From contig CAYPAU010000001.1 in assembly GCA_964408825.1 (NCBI GenBank), forward strand, positions 76,789 to 140,788: a DNA stretch of 64,000 bases. The letters are read 5' to 3'. Source of the stretch: an uncultured Gammaproteobacteria bacterium. Lineage in GTDB: Bacteria > Patescibacteriota > Microgenomatia > Levybacterales > UBA12049. This document shows, one piece after another, positions 2,397 to 46,996 of this stretch (position 1 is the stretch's first letter; every line of letters starts with the position of its first letter). The notes below the pieces were generated by a model. That model was given only the letters and a program-made list of their open reading frames with translations. It ran no database searches and was not told the DNA's origin. The translations under genes were made by a program, and so were the position numbers.

Positions 2397-3215
2397 ATGA
2401 AGATAATAGGAACAGGACTTACGGGACTTGTGGGGTCCCGAGTTGCAGAGCTTTTAAAAGATAAATATGAATTTGTAAATTTTAGCAGAAGAAGTGGTAA
2501 TGACATAACTGACAAGAATGAAGTTTTTAATTTTCTAGGATCATCAGACGCGCCCCTCGTAATTCATCTTGCAGCAAAAACAGACGTAGATGATTGCGAA
2601 AAGGATAAAGAAGAAGATAGTAAAATATTGGGATATAAAGATATTAAGGAACAGGAAGAGGAATTTAAAATAAAGAAAACGGCTTGGGCAGTTAATGTTT
2701 TAGGAACAAAAAATATTGTTGACGCATGCAGAAAAACTAAGAAAAAATTAATATACATATCAACCGACTTTGTCTTCGACGGGACAAAAGATTTTTACAA
2801 AGAGGAAGATACCCCAAACCCGATTAATTGGTATGGAAAAACAAAATATGAAGGGGAGAAACTGGTTTCTTCTTCGGAAATTCCGAATGCGATAATAAGA
2901 ATTTCGTATCCCTATAGAGCAAAATTTCCCAAAAAAGATTTTATAAGAGTTTTAATTGATCTTTTGGCAAATGGTAAATCTTTAAGAATGGTAAGCGATC
3001 AGATTATTACACCGACATTTATAGACGATCTTGATTTTGTTTTCGACTATTTTCTTAAAAACCAAACGGAAGGTGTTTTTCACGCATGCGGAGGGGACTC
3101 TCTGACTCCTTTTGAAATAGTAAATAAAATTGCTGAAGTTTTTGGTTTTAATAAAAATTTAATATCAAAAACAATAAGGAAAGAATTTTTCAGAGGAAGA
3201 GCAGAACGCCCTTAA
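2397..3215 (+). CDS. rmlD: dTDP-4-dehydrorhamnose reductase-like protein (RmlD). The annotated ORF ends at an in-frame TAA; the same frame stays open to 3308 (see findings).
   Basis: RmlD-like N-terminus MKIIGTGLTGLVGSRV and an acidic low-complexity insertion. The in-frame continuation ends in an ATGA overlap with ugd. Confidence 0.6.
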   Translation: MKIIGTGLTGLVGSRVAELLKDKYEFVNFSRRSGNDITDKNEVFNFLGSSDAPLVIHLAAKTDVDDCEKDKEEDSKILGYKDIKEQEEEFKIKKTAWAVNVLGTKNIVDACRKTKKKLIYISTDFVFDGTKDFYKEEDTPNPINWYGKTKYEGEKLVSSSEIPNAIIRISYPYRAKFPKKDFIRVLIDLLANGKSLRMVSDQIITPTFIDDLDFVFDYFLKNQTEGVFHACGGDSLTPFEIVNKIAEVFGFNKNLISKTIRKEFFRGRAERP

Positions 3216-3304
3216 CATCTTCTTATGAAAAATGATAAAATTAACAAATTGGTAATAAAATTCAAAAGACTTGAAGAAGGCATTTTAGAAACGAGAAAAC
3301 AAAT

Positions 3305-4594
3305 ATGACAATAACTTTCATCGGCCACGGATATGTTGGACTTGTTACAGCATCCATCTTTGCAGATTTAGGCAATAAGGTTTGGGTGATTGGCAGGGAC
3401 CCTAAGAAAATAAAAGATCTTAAAAAAGGAAAATCTCCATTCTTTGAACCCGGACTTGAAGAACTTGTAAAACGAAATATTAGAGCAAAGAGGCTTTTTT
3501 TTACGCTTGATTATAAGCCTTCAGTTTCGGATTCAGACATAGTTTTCATAGCCGTTGGAACTCCACCGAATAAAACAGGCGATGCAGAACTTCTTGGAGT
3601 TTTCGCCGTTGCGGAAAATATTGGAAAAAATCTGAAAGGTTATACGGTTATTGCTACAAAAAGCACGGTTCCTCCCGGCACAAATAAAAGAATAAAACAA
3701 TTGATAGATGAAGTTAAGCCTCATGAAGCAACATTCGACATCGCATCGGTTCCTGAGTTTCTTCGTGAAGGAACAGCGATTCAAGACACCTTGGCGCCCG
3801 ACAGGATTGTTATAGGAACCGAAAATAAAAGAGCCCAGAATTTGCTTATTGAACTTCATAAGCCTATCGACAGACAGTTTGTTCTAACAAATCTTGAGAC
3901 AGCGGAGCTCATTAAATATGCATCAAATTCATTTTTGGCCACTAAAATTTCATTTGCAAATGCGATAGCAAAATTATCAGAACTAGTCGGAGCAGATGGT
4001 ATTGCCGTTATTGAAGGACTAGGTCTGGACAAAAGGATTGGCAATGAATTTCTTGCTCCAGGTCCTGGCTACGGCGGAAGCTGTTTCCCAAAAGACGTAA
4101 AAGCCCTAATTGCAATCGCCAAGAATTATGATTATAGCTTTGCTTTACTTGATGAGGTAGAAAAAATTAATGGACAGGCAAAGCGCGATATCGTTAGAAA
4201 AGCAAGAAAATTGCTGACAGATTTAAACAAAAAGACCATTGGAATATTGGGTCTTTCCTTCAAACCCAATACCGATGACATGCGGGATGCTCAGTCTGTC
4301 GATATTATAGAAATGTTAAAGCAAGAAAGAGCAAGTATTAAAGCTTTTGACCCTCAAGCTATGGCAAATGCAAAAAGAATCATAACTAACGTTGAATTTT
4401 GCGATAACGTTTACGATGTAGCCAAGGGATCAGATGCACTTATTATTATTACAGATTGGAACGAATTTAAAGAACTTGATTTTAAAAAAATAAAAAAACT
4501 CATGAAAAACCTTATTATTATCGATGGAAGGAATATTTATAATCCTGAAAAAATGAGGGAATTAGGTTTCACCTATGTTGGAATTGGAAGATGA
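3305..4594 (+). CDS. ugd: UDP-glucose 6-dehydrogenase
   Basis: ITFIGHGYVGLVTA NAD-binding N-terminus, GGSCFPKD catalytic Cys motif, 429 aa. Confidence 0.85.
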   Translation: MTITFIGHGYVGLVTASIFADLGNKVWVIGRDPKKIKDLKKGKSPFFEPGLEELVKRNIRAKRLFFTLDYKPSVSDSDIVFIAVGTPPNKTGDAELLGVFAVAENIGKNLKGYTVIATKSTVPPGTNKRIKQLIDEVKPHEATFDIASVPEFLREGTAIQDTLAPDRIVIGTENKRAQNLLIELHKPIDRQFVLTNLETAELIKYASNSFLATKISFANAIAKLSELVGADGIAVIEGLGLDKRIGNEFLAPGPGYGGSCFPKDVKALIAIAKNYDYSFALLDEVEKINGQAKRDIVRKARKLLTDLNKKTIGILGLSFKPNTDDMRDAQSVDIIEMLKQERASIKAFDPQAMANAKRIITNVEFCDNVYDVAKGSDALIIITDWNEFKELDFKKIKKLMKNLIIIDGRNIYNPEKMRELGFTYVGIGR

Positions 4595-18681: not shown

Positions 18682-20043
18682 TTATTTTACTTCTTTTATT
18701 CTTTTTTCTAAATATTCTTTTGTGTTTCTTGATAAATCTTCGTCAACTTCTTCGAAAAGTTTTTGAAGAATTTCACCGACCTTTGGTCCGGGTTTAATAC
18801 CTAATATTTTCATTACGTCATTCCCGTCAATTGCGAGATCATTTATAGAAAACGGGGCAGGCTTAAGCTGGTCTTCGACCCTCTTTTTAAACAGTTTAAG
18901 TCTCCAACTTTCGGCAGTCTGCGTTCCTCCTCCGAGTCTGTCTCCAATTCTAAGATCCATCATGTCTTTTACATTCTCAACCCCGACTCTTCGTATAAAT
19001 CTTCTGACAGCAGCATCTGTAATCTTTTCATCCACGGTAAACATGTGCCATCTTATAAGATTGACAATTTTTTCCCTGTCTTTTTTTGAGAATTTTAATC
19101 TTTCACAGATTTCCTTTGCAATTTTTGAGCCTTTCATTTCATGATTGTGAAATATGACAAGCCCCTCTTCATCGAAGGACACAACATACGGTTTTCCAAC
19201 ATCATGAATAAGAGTTGCAAATCTTACAATTGGATCTTTTGACGGGCAATATTTCAAAGACAAAACATTATGAGTAAAGACATCAGTCGTATGGTGTCTG
19301 CCCGGTCTTGCCTGGGAAACTCCGACCCCTTTTATAAGTTCCGGAATAATTTGTTCTAAGAGCCCTGAATTTTTAAGAAGCATAATGCCTTCGTAGGGAT
19401 AAGAACTTTTAAGAATTCTTAAAAGTTCGTCGTGAATTCTTTCCTTGGAGATATCATTGATAAGACTTGCATCGCTTACAATTTCCCTCCATGTTTTCTC
19501 ATCTATCGTAAAAGATAATTCTGTCGCAATTCTTATTGCCCTCATCAGTCTTAGTGCATCCTCTTTGAATCTTTTTTTTGGATCTCCTACGGCCCGTACG
19601 ATTTTATTTTCTAAATCTTTCTTTCCCAAAAAAGGATCAATAATCTCAGTTTTGAGTCTTAAGTTTTGAGTTATGAGCTTAAGCGCTATGGCGTTTATGG
19701 TGAAATCCCTCCTCGAAAGATCTTCTTCGATTGTTTTTCCCCATTCTATTTTTTTTTTTTTTCTTCTGTCTATGTATCCGTGCTCGGTTCTAAAGGTTGT
19801 AACCTCAATGACTTGGTTTTTTCGGTACGGAATACCCACTGTGCCAAACGTGTTGTTGTAGAAAGCACTTGGAAAAAGTTTTAGTAAATCCTTCGGAGTT
19901 GCACTTGTTGTAAAATCCCAATCCTTAACAGGTTTTTTAAGAATTATATTCCTTACACACCCTCCTACAAGGAAGACACTAAAACCACCATTTTCGATTT
20001 TTTTATAAATTTTGATGATTTCATCTGGAATAGGAAGCTCCAT
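18682..20043 (-). CDS. cca: CCA-adding tRNA nucleotidyltransferase (polymerase head plus HD domain)
   Basis: GGCVRNIILKKPVKDWDFTT nucleotidyltransferase motif and an HD domain (HDVGKP). Confidence 0.8.
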   Translation of the reverse strand: MELPIPDEIIKIYKKIENGGFSVFLVGGCVRNIILKKPVKDWDFTTSATPKDLLKLFPSAFYNNTFGTVGIPYRKNQVIEVTTFRTEHGYIDRRKKKKIEWGKTIEEDLSRRDFTINAIALKLITQNLRLKTEIIDPFLGKKDLENKIVRAVGDPKKRFKEDALRLMRAIRIATELSFTIDEKTWREIVSDASLINDISKERIHDELLRILKSSYPYEGIMLLKNSGLLEQIIPELIKGVGVSQARPGRHHTTDVFTHNVLSLKYCPSKDPIVRFATLIHDVGKPYVVSFDEEGLVIFHNHEMKGSKIAKEICERLKFSKKDREKIVNLIRWHMFTVDEKITDAAVRRFIRRVGVENVKDMMDLRIGDRLGGGTQTAESWRLKLFKKRVEDQLKPAPFSINDLAIDGNDVMKILGIKPGPKVGEILQKLFEEVDEDLSRNTKEYLEKRIKEVK

Positions 20044-27658: not shown

Positions 27659-27729
27659 TGCTGGGTCATCTAACGGTAGGATAGCGGACTCTGAATCCGT
27701 TCATCTTGGTTCAAATCCAAGCCCAGCAG
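27659..27729 (+). tRNA. tRNA-Gln (anticodon CUG)
   Basis: Hand-folded: acceptor TGCTGGG/CCCAGCA with U1-A72 and G73, D-loop with GG, anticodon loop CUCUGAA, T-arm CTTGG-TTCAAAT-CCAAG. No encoded CCA. Confidence 0.8.
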
Positions 27730-27730
27730 C

Positions 27731-28109
27731 TATCCTTCGCCAAGGCTACGGAATAGCATGCAATTACGAAGCTGAGAGCGAAGTATTACATGCACTATTG
27801 TTATGTATTGTTGAGTTCAAAATCTCATATTTTTTATTTTGGTTCAACAAATAACTTGAAAAGCAGATTAAAATCGCATAACAATGGGAGTATTAAATCA
27901 ACTAGACCACATAGGCCTTGGGATTTAATTTGGTACGCCGGATTCAAAACCGAAAAAGAAGCAAGAGATTTTGAGCTTTATCTAAAATCTGGTTCAGGAA
28001 GATCGTTTGCCTACAAAAGATTAATTTCCGTAACGTTGAAGAAGGATTTCTCTGATGGGCGAAGAAGTAGTCCGAAGTCTAAGACGTAGGATACCAAGCC
28101 CAGCAGCTA
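27731..28109 (+). mobile_element. About 360-bp GIY-YIG cassette inserted at the tRNA-Gln 3' end. The 16-bp direct repeat CCAAGCCCAGCAGCTA sits at 27717-27732 and 28094-28109; imperfect inverted ends are TATCCTTCGCC and GACGTAGGATA.
   Basis: Exact 16-nt duplication of the tRNA 3' end 362 bp downstream. The second copy has no upstream T-arm, so it is not a tRNA. Confidence 0.5.
27790..28089 (+). CDS. GIY-YIG nuclease family protein (YhbQ/UPF0213-like, 99 aa)
   Basis: YCYVLLSSKSHIFYFGSTNNLKSRLKSHN is a GIY-YIG motif, followed by the family's downstream Arg/Glu helix. Confidence 0.75.
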   Translation: MHYCYVLLSSKSHIFYFGSTNNLKSRLKSHNNGSIKSTRPHRPWDLIWYAGFKTEKEARDFELYLKSGSGRSFAYKRLISVTLKKDFSDGRRSSPKSKT

Positions 28110-44916: not shown

Positions 44917-45624
44917 ATGGAGTTGCTTCTTCAGGTTTCTGATTTTTTTCTTCATCTCGATAAATACCTCGCAGTTATAATCTCAGCAGTCGGACCTCTT
45001 ACATACGTAGTCTTATTTGCAATAGTTTTCGTTGAAACCGGATTTGTAATCATGCCTTTTCTTCCCGGGGATTCGCTTCTTTTTATATCAGGCGCACTGT
45101 CCGGAACAGGACACTTAAATGTTTTTTTGGTTTACGCTACCCTATTTTTGGCAGCTGTAATAGGGGATACCGTGAACTATTGGGTGGGTCATCACATAGG
45201 GCCGCGGGTTTTCTCAAAAGAAAATTCAAGAATTTTCAAAAAAGAATATCTCGAGAGGACTCGGGAATTTTACGAAAAGCATGGAGGAAAGACCATTATA
45301 CTTGCCCGCTTTATTCCAATAATTCGCTCTTTTGCTCCTTTTGTGGCAGGAGTAGGCAAAATGCATTACAAAACGTTTTTAATGTACAACGTCTCAGGGG
45401 CATTTGTCTGGGTAACTCTATTTGTGCTTGGTGGCTATTTCTTTGGAGGACTTCCGATTATCAAAGAAAACTTTCACTACACTGTATTTATAATCGTGTT
45501 CCTATCCTTCCTTCCAATGGTTATCGAGTATATAAATCACAAACGCAGAAAAAGATTGGCAAGAGAAAAGACCACATATGAGGAAATAGAAAAAACTTTC
45601 GAAAAAGAACACCTCGCCGACTAG
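44917..45624 (+). CDS. DedA/SNARE-associated family membrane protein
   Basis: FVETGFVIMPFLPGDSLLFISGAL and RFIPIIRSFAPFVAG motifs. Confidence 0.8.
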   Translation: MELLLQVSDFFLHLDKYLAVIISAVGPLTYVVLFAIVFVETGFVIMPFLPGDSLLFISGALSGTGHLNVFLVYATLFLAAVIGDTVNYWVGHHIGPRVFSKENSRIFKKEYLERTREFYEKHGGKTIILARFIPIIRSFAPFVAGVGKMHYKTFLMYNVSGAFVWVTLFVLGGYFFGGLPIIKENFHYTVFIIVFLSFLPMVIEYINHKRRKRLAREKTTYEEIEKTFEKEHLAD

Positions 45625-45633
45625 CGTTTGAAA

Positions 45634-45662
45634 TTGTAATTAAACCCAGATTAAGGTAAAAT
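45634..45662 (+). promoter_or_regulatory. Sigma70-like promoter for tRNA-Glu (TTGTAA-17-TAAAAT)
   Basis: Its -10 lies 10 nt upstream of the tRNA 5' end. It shares the GGTAAAATAA context with the tRNA-Gln promoter. Confidence 0.4.
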
Positions 45663-45672
45663 AATGGCAGTT

Positions 45673-45745
45673 GGCCCCATCGTCTAGTGGCCTAGGACGG
45701 CAGGTTCTCATCCTGCAAACCCGGATTCGACTTCCGGTGGGGTCA
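45673..45745 (+). tRNA. tRNA-Glu (anticodon CUC)
   Basis: Hand-folded: acceptor GGCCCCA/TGGGGTC, D-arm TCGTCTAGTGGCCTAGGAC typical of tRNA-Glu, anticodon loop UUCUCAU, T-arm CCGGA-TTCGACT-TCCGG, discriminator A. Confidence 0.8.
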
Positions 45746-46126
45746 CTTCGGCAAGCTCAGTGCAAGCACTTCTATGCTAAAGGCTTCAGAGTGGTTCATC
45801 TATATGCTTCTTTGCGATAATAAAACTTTCTACACGGGGATTACTGATAATTTTATCGAGAGGTTTATAAAACATATAAATAAACAGAATATATCTACAA
45901 AAAAGTTTTTAAAAATTAAATTTGTTTATGCAGAAAAATATCGAGACAAATATCAAGCGGCAAGGAGAGAAAAACAGCTCAAAGGTTGGTCGCATGCAAA
46001 GAAGCAGTTAATGATTGACGGAAAACTTGGAATTAATACTTGTACTGAGTTTGTTGAAGATCTCATTTCGAAGCTGAATCTTTGAGTTTATTCCGAGCCT
46101 GCCGAGGAAACTTCCGGTGGGGTCAC
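45746..46126 (+). mobile_element. About 360-bp GIY-YIG cassette at the tRNA-Glu 3' end. The 17-bp direct repeat ACTTCCGGTGGGGTCAC sits at 45730-45746 and 46110-46126; the 13-bp inverted ends CTTCGGCAAGCTC and GAGCCTGCCGAGG match at 11 of 13 positions.
   Basis: Exact 17-nt duplication of the tRNA 3' end 380 bp downstream; inverted repeats sit immediately inside the duplications. Confidence 0.5.
45774..46085 (+). CDS. GIY-YIG nuclease family protein (YhbQ/UPF0213-like, 103 aa)
   Basis: WFIYMLLCDNKTFYTGITDNFIERFIKH (compare E. coli YhbQ [28 protein letters not shown]) and ARREKQLKGWSHAKKQL. Confidence 0.75.
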   Translation: MLKASEWFIYMLLCDNKTFYTGITDNFIERFIKHINKQNISTKKFLKIKFVYAEKYRDKYQAARREKQLKGWSHAKKQLMIDGKLGINTCTEFVEDLISKLNL

Positions 46127-46132
46127 AAGAGC

Positions 46133-46996
46133 TCATAAGTTTTTAAAGGCGTATTCCCTGCTTGATCGAACTACATATCCTACGGTTGGGGGAGCAAAAT
46201 GCGCTCCTATAAGAAGGATTTCCTTGTCGGTAATTTCTTCCAATAATTTCCTGCGTGTTTCTATAGCTTTGTCCGGATAAGTATCGTATTCTATTGTCCA
46301 TTCGGGATTTGCCAACTGACAAGGATGATGAATAAAATCTCCCGAAAATAAAGCATTTTTGCCTTTTGATTCAATTTTTAAACTAACATGTTCCGGTGTA
46401 TGTCCGGGCGCAGAGATTAGTTTCAAATTCTTATCTATCATATAATCGGATGAGATAAATTTTCCAAGCCCTGCATCCACCACGGGTTTTACTGAATCAT
46501 CAAAGGCGTCTTTATCATCGGCAACTTCACGTTCTGGATTAGTCTTCCAGTAATCATATTCTTTCTGCACAAATAGATATTCAGCATTTGGGAATGTAGG
46601 TTTCCAAACCCCATCGATCAATTCCGTATTCCATCCCACGTGATCAGTATGAAGATGTGTACTAATAACCACATCTACTTTTTCTTTTGCAACTCCCAGT
46701 TTTCTTAGTTTATCTAAAAAATCCGTTTTTAATCTTGACCATTCCGGAAGATCCGTGCGAATTTTGTCATTGCCATTTCCCGTATCAACTAAGATATTCT
46801 TACCTTCCGATTTGATGAGAAATGAAGCAACAGTAGCTTTAAATTTACCATTTTTGTCTGCAAAATGAGGAAATAGCCATTTTATTCTTCTGATTTTTTC
46901 GGGGGTTGCCGGTTTTATCCCATCCTGCAAAACTTTCCCTGCATCGGGAATTTCGATAATTTGGAAAATCTCAACATCACCAATTTTCCACTTCAT
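46133..46996 (-). CDS. MBL-fold metallo-hydrolase (AHL-lactonase-like)
   Basis: HLHTDHVGWN zinc-binding motif and GHTPEH. Confidence 0.7.
   Translation of the reverse strand: MKWKIGDVEIFQIIEIPDAGKVLQDGIKPATPEKIRRIKWLFPHFADKNGKFKATVASFLIKSEGKNILVDTGNGNDKIRTDLPEWSRLKTDFLDKLRKLGVAKEKVDVVISTHLHTDHVGWNTELIDGVWKPTFPNAEYLFVQKEYDYWKTNPEREVADDKDAFDDSVKPVVDAGLGKFISSDYMIDKNLKLISAPGHTPEHVSLKIESKGKNALFSGDFIHHPCQLANPEWTIEYDTYPDKAIETRRKLLEEITDKEILLIGAHFAPPTVGYVVRSSREYAFKNL

Follow-up and report, generated by a model that had tools for sequence, protein, structure and literature searches.

A compact GIY-YIG nuclease cassette between inverted hairpin sites at the 3' end of a tRNA-Glu gene: a candidate insertion element of Patescibacteria

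In the window, by which we mean the whole 64,000-nt stretch of DNA analysed here, a small GIY-YIG gene lies directly behind an intact tRNA-Glu(CUC) gene and is followed by a second copy of the end of that tRNA (Table 1). The Rfam tRNA family RF00005 matches the gene with 53.9 bits over 45673-45745; the discriminator is A45745, then comes C45746. The 17-nt repeat is exact at both places, as the first-pass annotation of this DNA had claimed, with a spacing of 380 nt; by an arithmetic estimate, about 2e-5 exact 17-mer pairs would be expected by chance in a 900-nt stretch. The limits of the inserted unit were deduced from the repeat boundaries and from comparison with a cassette-free tRNA-Glu gene in a related genome (locus L163). 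The unit begins precisely where the tRNA-Glu gene ends, and the final 17 bases of the tRNA, A58 to C74, are duplicated, so that the tRNA remains intact in spite of the insertion.

Table 1. Coordinates of the two tRNA-associated cassettes in the 64,000-nt window.
Feature	Position	Strand	Remarks
Promoter-like site TTGTAA-17-TAAAAT	45634..45662	+	11 nt upstream of tRNA-Glu; consensus match only
tRNA-Glu(CUC)	45673-45746	+	intact; ARAGORN
Direct repeat, left copy, 17 nt	45730..45746	+	ACTTCCGGTGGGGTCAC; spans tRNA T-loop A58 to C74
Left hairpin site	45744-45767	+	~22 nt; stem CACT (45744-45747) with AGTG (45759-45762); loop TCGGCAAGCTC (45748-45758); inner tail CAAGC (45763-45767)
Conserved left motif, 22 nt	45746-45767		CTTCGGCAAGCTCAGTGCAAGC; unique in the window
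Inverted repeat, 13 nt	45746-45758 and 46095-46107		CTTCGGCAAGCTC and GAGCCTGCCGAGG
Inserted unit proper	45747..46109	+	363 bp; 380 bp counting one repeat copy
GIY-YIG ORF, 103 aa	45774..46085	+	sole ORF within the 363-bp unit
Right hairpin site	46086..46109	+	inverted relative to the left site; inner tail GTTTA (46086-46090); stem TTCC (46091-46094) with GGAA (46106-46109); loop GAGCCTGCCGA (46095-46105)
Direct repeat, right copy, 17 nt	46110..46126	+	ACTTCCGGTGGGGTCAC; tRNA 3' fragment without the tRNA 5' part
Second cassette, overall	27659..28109	+	different deep clade from the Glu cassette
tRNA-Gln(CUG)	27659-27730	+	
Direct repeat of Gln cassette, 16 nt	27717-27732 and 28094-28109	+	CCAAGCCCAGCAGCTA
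Terminal inverted repeats of Gln cassette, 9 bp	27731-27739 and 28085-28093		TATCCTTCG and CGTAGGATA; abut the 16-nt repeat
GIY-YIG ORF of Gln cassette, 99 aa	27790-28089	+	

The only promoter-like site on the plus strand before the cassette ORF is the one upstream of the tRNA; such sites are not more numerous in the region than in shuffled sequences. None was found between tRNA-Glu and the ORF, and no terminator-like site in 45500-46300. Given the place of this only promoter-like site, transcription of the cassette gene probably starts at the tRNA promoter and reads through. The 363-bp unit contains no recombinase, its only ORF being the GIY-YIG nuclease, and no transposase family was matched in Pfam or NCBIfam. 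Searches with PADLOC and PHROGs gave no matches, and no relative was found among viral contigs. Rfam searches of the flanks returned tRNAs and group I introns only. Thus the cassette ends belong to no described RNA family, and the 17-mer, which might have been part of a downstream functional RNA, falls into no Rfam family besides tRNA.

The 103-aa ORF is predicted to encode a minimal single-domain GIY-YIG nuclease of the Slx1/UPF0213 (YhbQ) type. Its match to Pfam PF01541 (E 6e-13; 1.5e-18 for the ORF of the second cassette) confirms the earlier assignment to the GIY-YIG family, and neither of the two window proteins has any other domain. The likeness to E. coli YhbQ that had been noticed, including the N-terminal WF-Y...YTGIT motif, also held (26% identity over 81 aa, E 2e-8). 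With about 100 aa and with BH0048, EF2693, YhbQ and Slx1 as its nearest relatives, the protein fits the UPF0213/Slx1-like group. Sequence matches in the PDB were 1zg2 (5.9e-10) and 1ywl (1.4e-8); the AF2 model (pLDDT 82) has a beta-beta-alpha-beta-alpha core, and Foldseek returned 1zg2, 1ywl and Slx1 as its top matches. Y20, R30, H34, E66 and N88 are invariant among 31 homologs and the first tyrosine, Y10, is present in every homolog with a called N-terminus, so that the catalytic Tyr, Tyr, Arg, His/Tyr, Glu set of the GIY-YIG superfamily is complete.

Inverted repeats of 13 nt had been noticed immediately inside the duplication. They lie where they were said to lie and are complementary at 11/13 positions (12/13 with G-T pairs). 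Taken alone, this repeat is not beyond chance; the same 900-nt stretch contains nine other inverted pairs of 10-24 nt. It gains weight because it is conserved elsewhere. In the related loci the 13 nt proved to be the core of longer sites of about 22 nt which can form hairpins; the inverted ends as such are conserved, their extent was underestimated. The outer arm of the left hairpin includes the last three bases of the tRNA-Glu gene, and the right loop agrees with the reverse-complemented left loop in 10/11 positions.

The second cassette of the window, at tRNA-Gln(CUG), was described as having the same architecture. It shares the duplication, the inverted ends and the GIY-YIG ORF. It differs in its 9-bp termini and in its right end: the ORF reaches into the right terminal repeat, its stop codon being separated from the duplication by 4 nt, and thus there is no separate hairpin after the ORF. 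The two proteins are less similar than had been estimated: instead of roughly 35% identity, BLASTP gives 29% over 77 aa (E 2e-4). Hence both tRNA genes of the window are occupied, by cassettes just 29% identical, and near-identical multiple copies do not occur in the window. In tblastn searches of the 64 kb no further GIY-YIG copy was found beyond the two cassettes. A third match at 18823-19047 (E 0.001) was discarded as spurious; it lies inside a 453-aa gene resembling CCA-adding enzyme/poly(A) polymerase.

Two tRNA loci with this layout had been taken to argue for a family of elements, and the comparison with other genomes bears this out: Patescibacteria carry a large, hitherto undescribed set of such tRNA-end insertions. 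A tRNA gene on the same strand ends at most 160 nt upstream of 30 out of 160 GIY-YIG ORFs, and of 6 out of 967 other ORFs from the same loci, which served as controls (odds ratio 37, p 3e-21). The cassettes lie directly 3' of intact tRNAs of ten isotypes; another four occupied tRNAs contain group I introns. Where both ends could be read, i. e. in the subfamily with the left motif of the window and in some other copies, 10-19 nt of the local tRNA 3' end are repeated behind the cassette. For 24 loci of the window's subfamily both ends are defined; in these the unit measures 310-432 bp and the repeat mostly runs from T-loop position 57/58 to position 74 (at tRNA-His it is shorter, 10-15 nt); it matches the tRNA perfectly in eight of them (17/17) and at 15.3/17 positions on average.

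The closest relatives of the window cassette (63-74% amino acid identity) are all located at tRNA-Glu. In four of the six closest Glu-type loci, namely the window (17 nt exact), L169, L170 and L171 (17/17), the right copy corresponds to the tRNA of the respective genome; in L001 it matches at 15/17 positions, and L002 has no intact adjacent tRNA. These cassettes differ at synonymous sites by pS 0.43-0.80. That their right copies match the local tRNA despite this divergence argues for repeated fresh insertion. In a neighbor-joining tree the Asn, Gln and Tyr sites are intermixed. The Glu and His clades are each bound to one tRNA type; with 92 columns in the tree, the number of target switches can be given only roughly. 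Gln-type cassettes across distant classes of Patescibacteria share 67-82% amino acid identity and a near-identical non-coding left motif. Moreover, there are tandem and ORF-less copies (L096, L082), nested hairpin sites (L083, L007) and decayed copies with a premature stop (L095) or a disrupted reading frame (L043).

The ends of the cassette are conserved more strongly than the ORF, which itself is under purifying selection (dN/dS 0.07-0.27). The proposed selection on the termini is supported by the left motif, which is invariant across six Glu-type cassettes (A2) with near-saturated synonymous sites. The pattern CTTCGRCAAGCTCAGKG was present in 38 of 180 fetched loci, which speaks against the possibility that the inverted repeats are due to chance; in the Patescibacteria copies examined, it stands directly after the tRNA-like end and ahead of the ORF. 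Hairpin motifs occur at 2.43/kb within 300 nt of the ORFs and at 0.10/kb beyond (24-fold), and at least one is present in 106 of 160 loci. The covariation within the stems is 0.47 as compared to 0.19 in shuffles (0/500 shuffles reached this value), with 64% paired cells in the stems versus at most 38% in slid controls. The left arm covaries with the tRNA end (GCACT/AGTGC, ACCCT/AGGGT, CCA/TGG); right stems vary between loci as CCCT/AGGG, CATC/GATG, CACC/GGTG, TACT/AGTA and CTCT/AGAG.

G-T and A-C mismatches are equally frequent in the stems (27 vs 29), which speaks for a palindrome at the level of DNA and not for a strand-specific RNA. For this reason, and because the two sites are inverted, an RNA-level role of the hairpins was rejected as the main reading. 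The hairpin motif accompanies the nucleases of this family in many phyla. Two related clades have both hairpins upstream of the ORF, and a right-hand repeat is missing from many of their copies; hence the hairpins are not always termini. Elsewhere in the 64-kb window, outside the cassette ends, the motif occurs a single time, i. e. the window has no population of dispersed repeats.

The cassette can be compared, first, with the Ssn nucleases. These bind hairpin repeats which flank their own genes and cut only single-stranded DNA, 3 nt upstream of the site; a hairpin divided between two strands is sufficient for cutting as well (PMC11893778). SsnA of Neisseria restricts incoming ssDNA and affects transformation; its authors note that the arrangement NTS-ssnA-NTS looks like an insertion sequence and propose domestication (PMC11893778). 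Neither tRNA nor Patescibacteria nor flanking direct repeats are mentioned in that paper (Chenal 2025, PMC11893778). Ssn (SsnA of Neisseria meningitidis, cd10448) and the cassette have in common a single-domain GIY-YIG protein of about 95-100 aa (about 94 aa in Ssn, 103 and 99 aa in the window), whose gene lies between inverted hairpin-forming repeats of 20-50 nt with a directional flank (GTCA-like tail), and an occurrence in many phyla. A flanking hairpin on one or both sides, as is typical of Ssn genes, is present here on both (45744-45767 and 46086-46109). The cassette hairpin has a short stem of 3-5 bp and a conserved loop of 11-13 nt (TTCGRCAAGCTCA). Furthermore, the cassette differs from Ssn in its insertion at tRNA 3' ends, where 16-19 nt of the tRNA are duplicated, in its left hairpin, half of which comes from the target, and in the lack of dispersed repeats in the window.

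The published SRM pattern HGTCWYN(0-2)YYVSBRHN(0-5)WNVSBRGN(0-2)RNCYNB had no match in the window and lay near the ORF in one of 160 loci; the cassette hairpin is thus a different dialect of this motif. L119, the only locus with a canonical NTS-like match, was dropped as a bona fide Ssn reference, as hairpins of the cassette type adjoin its ORF. When the Ssn rule (cut 8 nt 5' of the stem) was applied to the cassette, the predicted cuts fell on both borders of the ORF, inside the cassette and not at its outer ends. With its single domain and the hairpins beside its gene, the protein is organised like Ssn, and the two may be akin.

The other systems to which the cassette can be compared each share some of its features. 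Proteins of the UPF0213/YhbQ type have been regarded as housekeeping proteins with vertical inheritance (PMC1564403). In sequence and fold the cassette protein is like them (1zg2, 1ywl, YhbQ), and the neighbourhood of E. coli yhbQ has no adjacent tRNA gene. We know of no record of hairpin ends or of tRNA-end insertion for UPF0213/YhbQ proteins; apart from the Ssn paper, no literature was found that links UPF0213 to REP-like repeats, and none that links GIY-YIG genes to tRNA-end insertion. REP/REPIN-RAYT and IS200/IS605 systems also have a small nuclease or transposase gene between inverted hairpin repeats that acts on ssDNA hairpins, and also occur as ORF-less hairpin doublets; in IS200/IS605, moreover, bases beside the insertion site pair with bases of the element, comparable to the composite left hairpin found here. 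However, their enzyme is an HUH tyrosine transposase which forms covalent intermediates and rejoins DNA, and they neither duplicate their target nor choose tRNA ends.

Casposons are archaeal or bacterial elements of 8-20 kb with terminal inverted repeats, a 14-15 bp target duplication and, in some families, insertion at a tRNA 3' end; they are moved by a Cas1 integrase and have their own polymerase. The ends, the long duplication and the tRNA site are alike, but the cassette has neither Cas1 nor polymerase. With integrase-dependent islands and prophages the cassette shares the direct repeat of the tRNA 3' end flanking the insert and the regenerated tRNA. Unlike them, it comprises 363 bp without integrase, has inverted hairpin ends and carries a nuclease as its sole gene. 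The Seg proteins of phage T4 are likewise selfish GIY-YIG nucleases encoded among tRNA genes, and SegB reportedly acts in a tRNA gene cluster. Yet Seg proteins and I-TevI exceed 200 aa, possess separate DNA-binding domains, fall into the UvrC-like branch and show neither hairpin ends nor target duplication. As in insertion sequences, both the Glu and the Gln type have terminal inverted repeats and a flanking duplication. The enzyme that cuts and rejoins, a transposase, is missing; the only ORF encodes a hydrolytic GIY-YIG nuclease.

Taken together, we assign a probability of about 60% to the interpretation that 45747-46109 is a compact selfish insertion cassette, consisting of one gene for a minimal GIY-YIG nuclease between inverted hairpin sites. 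The hairpins which bracket the gene would be of the type that such nucleases recognise. The encoded nuclease might start the mobility by cutting ssDNA beside hairpins, both at the element's own ends and at a hairpin formed with the tRNA gene; host repair synthesis might then fill in the insertion and thereby make the duplication. That the tRNA gene can form such a hairpin is suggested by the left hairpin, which is half tRNA and half element, and by the antisense T-loop AGTCGAA, which resembles the 3' half of the loop (..GTCGAA). GIY-YIG enzymes hydrolyse DNA and, to our knowledge, do not rejoin it; hence a host-assisted step is needed. A hydrolytic nuclease of ~100 aa alone cannot explain the integration or the 17-nt staggered duplication.

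The cassette-free state is represented by locus L163 of a related genome. No contiguous ancestral gene runs across the site there; a tRNA-Glu with 72/74 identical positions stands without a cassette, its neighbouring genes and the orientation of the tRNA being different. Among the compared loci, there was no insertion with identical flanks on both sides. Of the loci with DedA orthologs that were examined for a clean empty site, L161 and L162 have a different tRNA-Glu sequence and L164-L168 no tRNA beside DedA, so that only L163 is usable for comparison.

Several loci are irregular. Some, among them L002, L084 and L177, combine a badly decayed left tRNA with a perfect right fragment, which is not predicted by simple target duplication followed by neutral decay. 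L002 shows, in this order, an intact tRNA-Glu, a 1.8-kb stretch containing two genes, decayed tRNA-like sequence, the cassette and the perfect right copy (18/18). The right fragment of L084 agrees at 17/17 positions with an intact tRNA located 1.8 kb from it. Where the left flank has no tRNA, it is nonetheless similar to the carried fragment (13/16 in L009, 11/15 in L085). In L001, L003, L081 and L092, the right copies differ from the adjacent tRNA and yet resemble real tRNA ends.

Some of these irregular loci could be accounted for if the gene were a pure homing-endonuclease gene, whose product cuts a cassette-free tRNA gene, e. g. in the T-loop, and which is then copied from the occupied gene during repair. 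The 17-nt repeats would be inherited homology anchors for synthesis-dependent strand annealing instead of products of insertion, the left copy coming from the donor and the right copy being the recipient's original 3' end. Perfect right copies beside divergent left tRNAs (L002, L084) and right copies that are tRNA-like but differ from the adjacent tRNA would follow from this. GIY-YIG enzymes are classic homing nucleases, with SegB of T4 in a tRNA gene cluster, and the Glu and His clades each keep to a single tRNA type. We nevertheless regard pure homing as unlikely. Nearly the same ends occur at ten isotypes, each with a repeat from the local tRNA, and Asn, Gln and Tyr sites do not separate in the tree; hence new repeats must arise often. 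Moreover, the protein has none of the DNA-binding domains present in known homing enzymes, the closest of its relatives to have been characterised cleave only ssDNA beside hairpins, and classical homing has no use for conserved inverted hairpin ends. It is improbable, too, that the gene has been domesticated, with an Ssn-like ssDNA nuclease and regulatory or target hairpins serving the cell, for instance in the restriction of ssDNA; the tRNA-gene position would then ensure expression and the repeat would be left over from a single ancient insertion. Such a role fits the strong purifying selection that acts on the ORF, the host-level effect of Neisseria Ssn on transformation and the single hairpin motif outside the cassette ends in 64 kb. 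It is at odds with the near-identical tRNA-Glu that has no cassette in a related genome (L163), with the many isotypes, the tandem and ORF-less copies and the pseudogenes, with right copies exact for the local tRNA in 4/6 of the closest Glu-type loci despite saturated divergence, and with the occupation of both window tRNAs by such distant cassettes.

Direct repeats of a tRNA 3' end usually point to insertion by an integrase, and so the cassette might be passive, a circularised unit mobilised by a recombinase whose gene lies elsewhere (integron-like, or a tyrosine integrase with a tRNA 3' attB), with the nuclease as cargo. The two hairpin sites and the 17-nt core would constitute the recombination site; the circular junction of right hairpin, 17-nt core and left hairpin does resemble one, and the tandem arrays resemble cassette arrays. 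Still, in the gene tables and ORF lists of the inspected flanks no integrase or recombinase gene was noticed, and the hairpin motif travels with the nuclease across phyla and is of the binding-site type of the related Ssn. Thus the nuclease is not arbitrary cargo, and we consider a passive cassette very improbable. As the repeat makes the boundaries ambiguous, it is formally conceivable that 45730-46109 is removed at the RNA level and that the true tRNA consists of 45673-45729 joined to 46110-46126. The right fragment is well kept where the left copy has decayed, and the RNA of the entire unit folds more stably than shuffled sequences do (z -4.6), a stability for which the repeats themselves mostly account. 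This interpretation is scarcely credible, however: the left copy already completes the tRNA (ARAGORN, Rfam), no bacterial enzyme is known for such splicing, and the hairpins show no RNA-type strand asymmetry. A T-loop intron or split tRNA was rejected, since loci with decayed left copies have no matching tRNA 5' half upstream.

A more specific role of the right-hand tRNA fragment can also be envisaged, which we consider improbable. The fragment might be a working half-site or guide, made of DNA (or RNA), that pairs with unoccupied tRNA 3' ends and directs the nuclease, acting together with the adjacent hairpin. This would be similar to the two-oligo DNA-guided cleavage by Ssn and to the use of the IS200/IS605 flank by TnpB. 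Perfect right fragments beside decayed left copies (L002, L084), the tRNA-like left flanks (L009, L085) and the composite left hairpin fit this possibility, as does the fact that the right fragment follows the local tRNA sequence in most of the closest Glu-type loci.

There are tens of thousands of small single-domain GIY-YIG proteins (UPF0213/YhbQ, Ssn), and Ssn is the one characterised family. It has been suspected, and never shown, that nucleases of the Ssn/UPF0213 type are part of a mobile element. The Patescibacteria loci supply discrete units with defined ends, a defined target at the tRNA 3' end and a flanking duplication, as well as filled and apparently empty sites and decayed, tandem and ORF-less copies; by this, the question of Ssn-type mobility becomes testable. 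If mobile, the cassettes would be among the smallest autonomous insertion elements known (~360 bp) and would move by means of a hydrolytic ssDNA nuclease and host repair. If the right fragment were indeed a guide, a nuclease of ~100 aa would be programmable by base-pairing and drive its own homing. A hairpin composed of target and element suggests that the specificity can be reset by base-pairing, which could be of interest for ssDNA tools.

An annotation artefact is common in these genomes: ORFs have been called that start inside tRNA genes and read LRQAQCK, TSASSVQA or SFAKATE. These calls arise because of the cassettes.

On the sequence evidence, the 363-bp cassette behind tRNA-Glu(CUC) is a hairpin-flanked nuclease unit of the Ssn/UPF0213 type that appears to act as an insertion cassette with specificity for the 3' ends of tRNA genes, making a duplication of 16-19 nt. 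The first-pass annotation had taken it for a member of a family of tRNA-end elements; the finding is real and this interpretation is supported. The final 17 nt of the tRNA-Glu call (ACTTCCGGTGGGGTCAC; call backed by Rfam, 53.9 bits) do recur exactly downstream, whereas by our own arithmetic about 2e-5 exact 17-mer pairs are expected by chance in 900 nt. The single ORF between the copies matches Pfam GIY-YIG (E 6e-13). Both tRNA genes called by ARAGORN in the window are occupied by cassettes, and the tRNA-Gln(CUG) locus has the parallel features ascribed to it, i. e. a repeat and a GIY-YIG ORF. The identity of the two cassette proteins, estimated at about 35%, was measured as 29%. The two 13-mers proposed as inverted ends are present and pair at 11 of 13 positions (12 of 13 counting G-T). 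However, nine further inverted pairs of comparable quality occur in the same 900-nt stretch, and thus this repeat has weight only through its conservation elsewhere.

Coordinates of features in the window and in fetched loci of cassette-protein relatives (L numbers)
Sequence	Feature	Position	Remark
Window	453-aa ORF	18682-20043 (-)	
Window	tRNA-Gln(CUG)	27659-27730	
Window	tRNA-Gln repeat	27717-27732 and 28094-28109	16 nt
Window	tRNA-Gln cassette GIY-YIG ORF	27790-28089	99 aa
Window	promoter-like site	45634-45662	
Window	tRNA-Glu(CUC)	45673-45746	
Window	tRNA-Glu repeat	45730-45746 and 46110-46126	17 nt
Window	left hairpin	45744-45762	CACT-TCGGCAAGCTC-AGTG; inner tail CAAGC
Window	proposed inverted 13-mers	45746-45758 and 46095-46107	
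Window	tRNA-Glu cassette ORF	45774..46085	103 aa
Window	right hairpin	46086-46109	GTTTA, then TTCC-GAGCCTGCCGA-GGAA
L002	upstream tRNA	1084-1156	
L002	cassette region	2940-3330	
L002	hairpin GGGAACACYTASGCAWGGTGTTCGAACC	3331-3375	
L171	hairpin GGGAACACYTASGCAWGGTGTTCGAACC	about 3345-3390	
L084	upstream tRNA	103-175	
L084	cassette region	1930-2330	
L003	group I intron	2702-2909	
L008	group I intron	2500-2878	same as L086 1500-1878
L087	group I intron	1716-1910	
L096	ORF-less mini unit	1-140	
L082	ORF-less mini unit	about 2330-2360	
L029	dense hairpin cluster	2820-3430	both orientations
L039	dense hairpin cluster	2915-3440	both orientations
L056	dense hairpin cluster	2716-3680	both orientations
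L061	dense hairpin cluster	2770-3501	both orientations

The description of the protein as YhbQ-like holds because sequence, profile and fold matches agree on UPF0213/YhbQ proteins. E. coli YhbQ aligned with 26% identity (E 2e-8), and a profile of 31 homologs matched BH0048 (1zg2, 5.9e-10) and EF2693 (1ywl, 1.4e-8) and, weakly, Slx1. The GIY-YIG core is present in the AlphaFold model (pLDDT 82), for which the same UPF0213 and Slx1 proteins were the best predicted fold matches. The profile search returned 14,930 clusters (50% identity) at E <= 1e-3. The cassette protein had no match in defence or phage families, and no relatives were found in viral contigs.

All homologs of the Glu-cassette protein with 55-74% identity come from Patescibacteria. 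In 160 loci from two large scans, a same-strand tRNA ended <=160 nt upstream of 30 of the 160 GIY-YIG ORFs but of only 6 of the 967 other ORFs (odds ratio 37, p 3e-21). Ten tRNA isotypes are occupied (Gln, Asn, Glu, His, Tyr, Leu, Ser, Met, Arg and Trp), and four more occupied tRNAs, missed by ARAGORN, carry group I introns (Rfam RF00028, 61-87 bits for those in the table). With an intron and a GIY-YIG cassette at the 3' end, these tRNAs are doubly parasitised. Several homolog ORF calls have N-terminal extensions which are the tRNA and the same DNA translated in three frames (LRQAQCK, TSASSVQA, HFGKLSAS); the public calls P0003, P0028, P0031, P0037, P0056, P0102, P0489 and P0502 start inside the upstream tRNA gene. 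Such artefactual N-termini are frequent in public gene calls for cassettes, e. g. MAPSSSGLG...GSLRQAQCK and ...PPPPPSFAKATE.

Both ends could be defined in 24 loci of the window's subfamily, and in these the unit is 310-432 bp long. The repeat ends at position 74, one base beyond the discriminator. Its start is T-loop position 57/58 in most loci, with shorter repeats of 10-15 nt at tRNA-His, and it is a perfect 17-nt repeat in 8 of the 24. Wherever both ends are readable, in this subfamily and in some other copies, a local tRNA-end duplication follows the cassette. In the fetched loci the element begins directly after the tRNA with CTTCGGCAAGCTCAGTGCAAGC and ends with GTTTAYCCTGAG-N4/5-CCGAAGGRA, after which the tRNA 3' end is repeated. 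Left and right ends mirror each other in inverted orientation; each is a short palindrome around a conserved loop, with stems that vary among loci yet remain complementary (CCCT/AGGG, CATC/GATG, CACC/GGTG, TACT/AGTA, CTCT/AGAG). What these loci show is a discrete unit set precisely at tRNA gene ends, bounded by conserved inverted hairpins and carrying a nuclease gene on which selection acts.

Covariation was tested on 141 distinct motif instances gathered without regard to pairing. The six flanking pairs were standard pairs in 64% of cells, as against 47% after shuffling and no more than 38% after sliding, and the stem covariation score was 0.47 versus 0.19 shuffled, with none of 500 shuffles as high. 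G-T and A-C mismatches were equally frequent (27 and 29), which, taken with the inverted orientation of the ends, speaks for a site at the DNA level and against a strand-specific RNA. In the left hairpin the tRNA itself provides the outer arm, and the inner arm matches it: GCACT/AGTGC at tRNAs ending in ..GCA, ACCCT/AGGGT at tRNA-His and CCA/TGG where CCA is encoded. In the six Glu-type cassettes the 22-nt left motif is invariant. At least one hairpin motif was present in 106 of the 160 loci, at a density of 2.43/kb within 300 nt of the ORFs versus 0.10/kb beyond 700 nt. At the right ends of L083 and L007 one hairpin is nested in the loop of another, e. g. GAGTTA[ATCCTGAGCTTGCCGAAGGAT]TTACCGA, where TTA flanks the nested site on both sides.

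The organisation of a hairpin-flanked GIY-YIG gene has already been described, as the Ssn family of ssDNA nucleases (Chenal et al. 2025; PMC11893778). These are single-domain GIY-YIG proteins of about 94 aa (CDD cd10448), with an NTS/SRM hairpin repeat near the gene in 71% and on both sides in 42%. The enzymes bind the hairpin and cleave ssDNA only, 3 nt upstream of the site, and still do so with a hairpin divided between two oligonucleotides. The authors noted that NTS-ssnA-NTS resembles an insertion sequence and compared it with REP/RAYT; tRNA, Patescibacteria and flanking direct repeats are not mentioned in that paper (PMC11893778). By this shared organisation the window's cassettes are putative kin of SsnA of Neisseria meningitidis; the published SRM search pattern had no match in the window and one among the 160 loci. 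Related ORFs from other phyla (Bacteroidota, Acidobacteriota, Chloroflexota, Nitrospirota and others) lie away from tRNAs, embedded in clusters of the same hairpin type, e. g. TGTCATCC-TTCGACAAGCTCA-GGATGACA, in either orientation. The dense clusters in the table, on Ignavibacteriota-like, Bacteroidota, Acidobacteriota and Clostridia contigs, are reminiscent of REP/BIME clusters; L056, L061 and also L026 contain direct repeats of 130-160 nt at a unit spacing of 495-603 nt. L119 combines two hairpin dialects in one locus: its ORF is flanked by the same hairpin type as the cassettes and is followed, about 230 nt downstream, by a canonical Neisseria-type NTS (CGTCATTCCCGCGCAGGCGGGAATCTAT).

The closest relatives of the window protein (63-74% identity; L169, L170, L171, L001, L002) are all at tRNA-Glu, CUC or UUC. 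In an NJ tree, which is indicative only since it rests on 92 columns, Glu sites and His sites each formed one clade, and Asn, Gln and Tyr were intermixed. The Gln cassette in the window falls into another deep clade, which also holds Ser-, Tyr- and Leu-linked copies. This Gln-type unit is bounded by a 9-bp terminal inverted repeat, TATCCTTCG / CG(A/T)AGGATA, that adjoins the duplication. Across Levy-, Moran-, Wildermuth- and Liptonbacteria its homologs show 67-82% identity and share a nearly identical non-coding left motif. Two tRNA-associated clades outside the Glu-type subfamily have both hairpins upstream of the ORF, and the right-hand repeat is missing from many of their copies.

One contig, whose DedA shares 82% identity with that of the window, has a tRNA-Glu(CUC) identical at 72 of 74 positions, both differences forming a compensatory T-stem pair. 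Another gene follows this tRNA directly, with neither cassette nor second 17-mer; as neighbour genes and tRNA orientation differ, the site is empty but not isogenic. L096 and L082 contain tandem and ORF-less copies: mini units (left hairpin, about 45 nt, right hairpin) are stacked in tandem between the end of a single tRNA and the full cassette, and directly after the right tRNA copy of L082 a second left motif begins. Broken ORFs were also found (premature stop in L095, disrupted frame in L043). Among the six Glu-type cassettes pS is 0.43-0.80, i. e. near saturation, and dN/dS 0.07-0.27. In spite of this divergence, the right copy equals the 3' end of the genome's own tRNA-Glu in four of the six loci (window, L169, L170, L171), and these 3' ends differ between the genomes. 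Either the insertions took place long after the cassette lineages had split, or the match of the right copy is maintained. In the other two, L001 has a right copy matching at 15 of 17 and L002 lacks an intact adjacent tRNA.

L002 and L084 have a badly decayed tRNA-like stretch on the left, whereas the right fragment is a perfect copy (18/18 and 17/17) of an intact, cassette-free tRNA about 1.8 kb upstream; some Gln-type copies are alike in this respect. A target duplication that then decayed neutrally does not account for this. It fits one of two readings: homing, in which the right copy is the recipient's original end, or a right fragment serving as guide or half-site. Pure homing by gene conversion was weighed alongside a domesticated host nuclease, a T-loop intervening sequence and a passive cassette moved by an unlinked recombinase. 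Against the last, inspection of gene tables and ORF lists for a number of flanks brought up no integrase gene.

For the insertion cassette, the likely course of events is the following. The gene would be expressed by read-through from the tRNA promoter, as the sole promoter-like site in the region lies upstream of this tRNA, the gap between tRNA and ATG is only 27 nt and no terminator was found near the cassette. By analogy with Ssn, the nuclease would act on ssDNA hairpins, and recognition could follow when the tRNA gene forms or completes one. The left hairpin is a composite of target and element, and the antisense T-loop AGTCGAA resembles the 3' half of the hairpin loop; extrapolating the Ssn rule, cleavage 8 nt 5' of the antisense T-arm stem would hit position 73/74, no more than one base from the junction. 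Since GIY-YIG enzymes are, to our knowledge, not known to rejoin DNA, host repair synthesis would have to complete the insertion and make the repeat. Besides the decayed left copies, two difficulties arise: applied to the cassette's own hairpins, the Ssn rule predicts cuts at the two ORF borders and not at the outer ends, and in some clades the hairpins are non-terminal. The composite hairpin and the good preservation of the right fragment suggest that targets may be chosen by base-pairing, and the published conjecture that such units are or were mobile is now testable.

The hairpin downstream of the right tRNA-Glu fragment that is common to L002 and L171 may be a native element following tRNA-Glu; the left flank of the L002 cassette, too, contains part of this hairpin, AGGTGTTCGA. 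Between the upstream tRNA and the cassette, L002 has a 417-aa ORF and a 113-aa ORF, the latter presumably a DUF559/Vsr-type endonuclease, judged by eye. In the window, the 453-aa ORF gave a weak tblastn match to the cassette protein (E 0.001) that was rejected as spurious. By eye we take it to be a putative CCA-adding enzyme or poly(A) polymerase; it would suit the tRNA genes here, which encode at most the first C of CCA.
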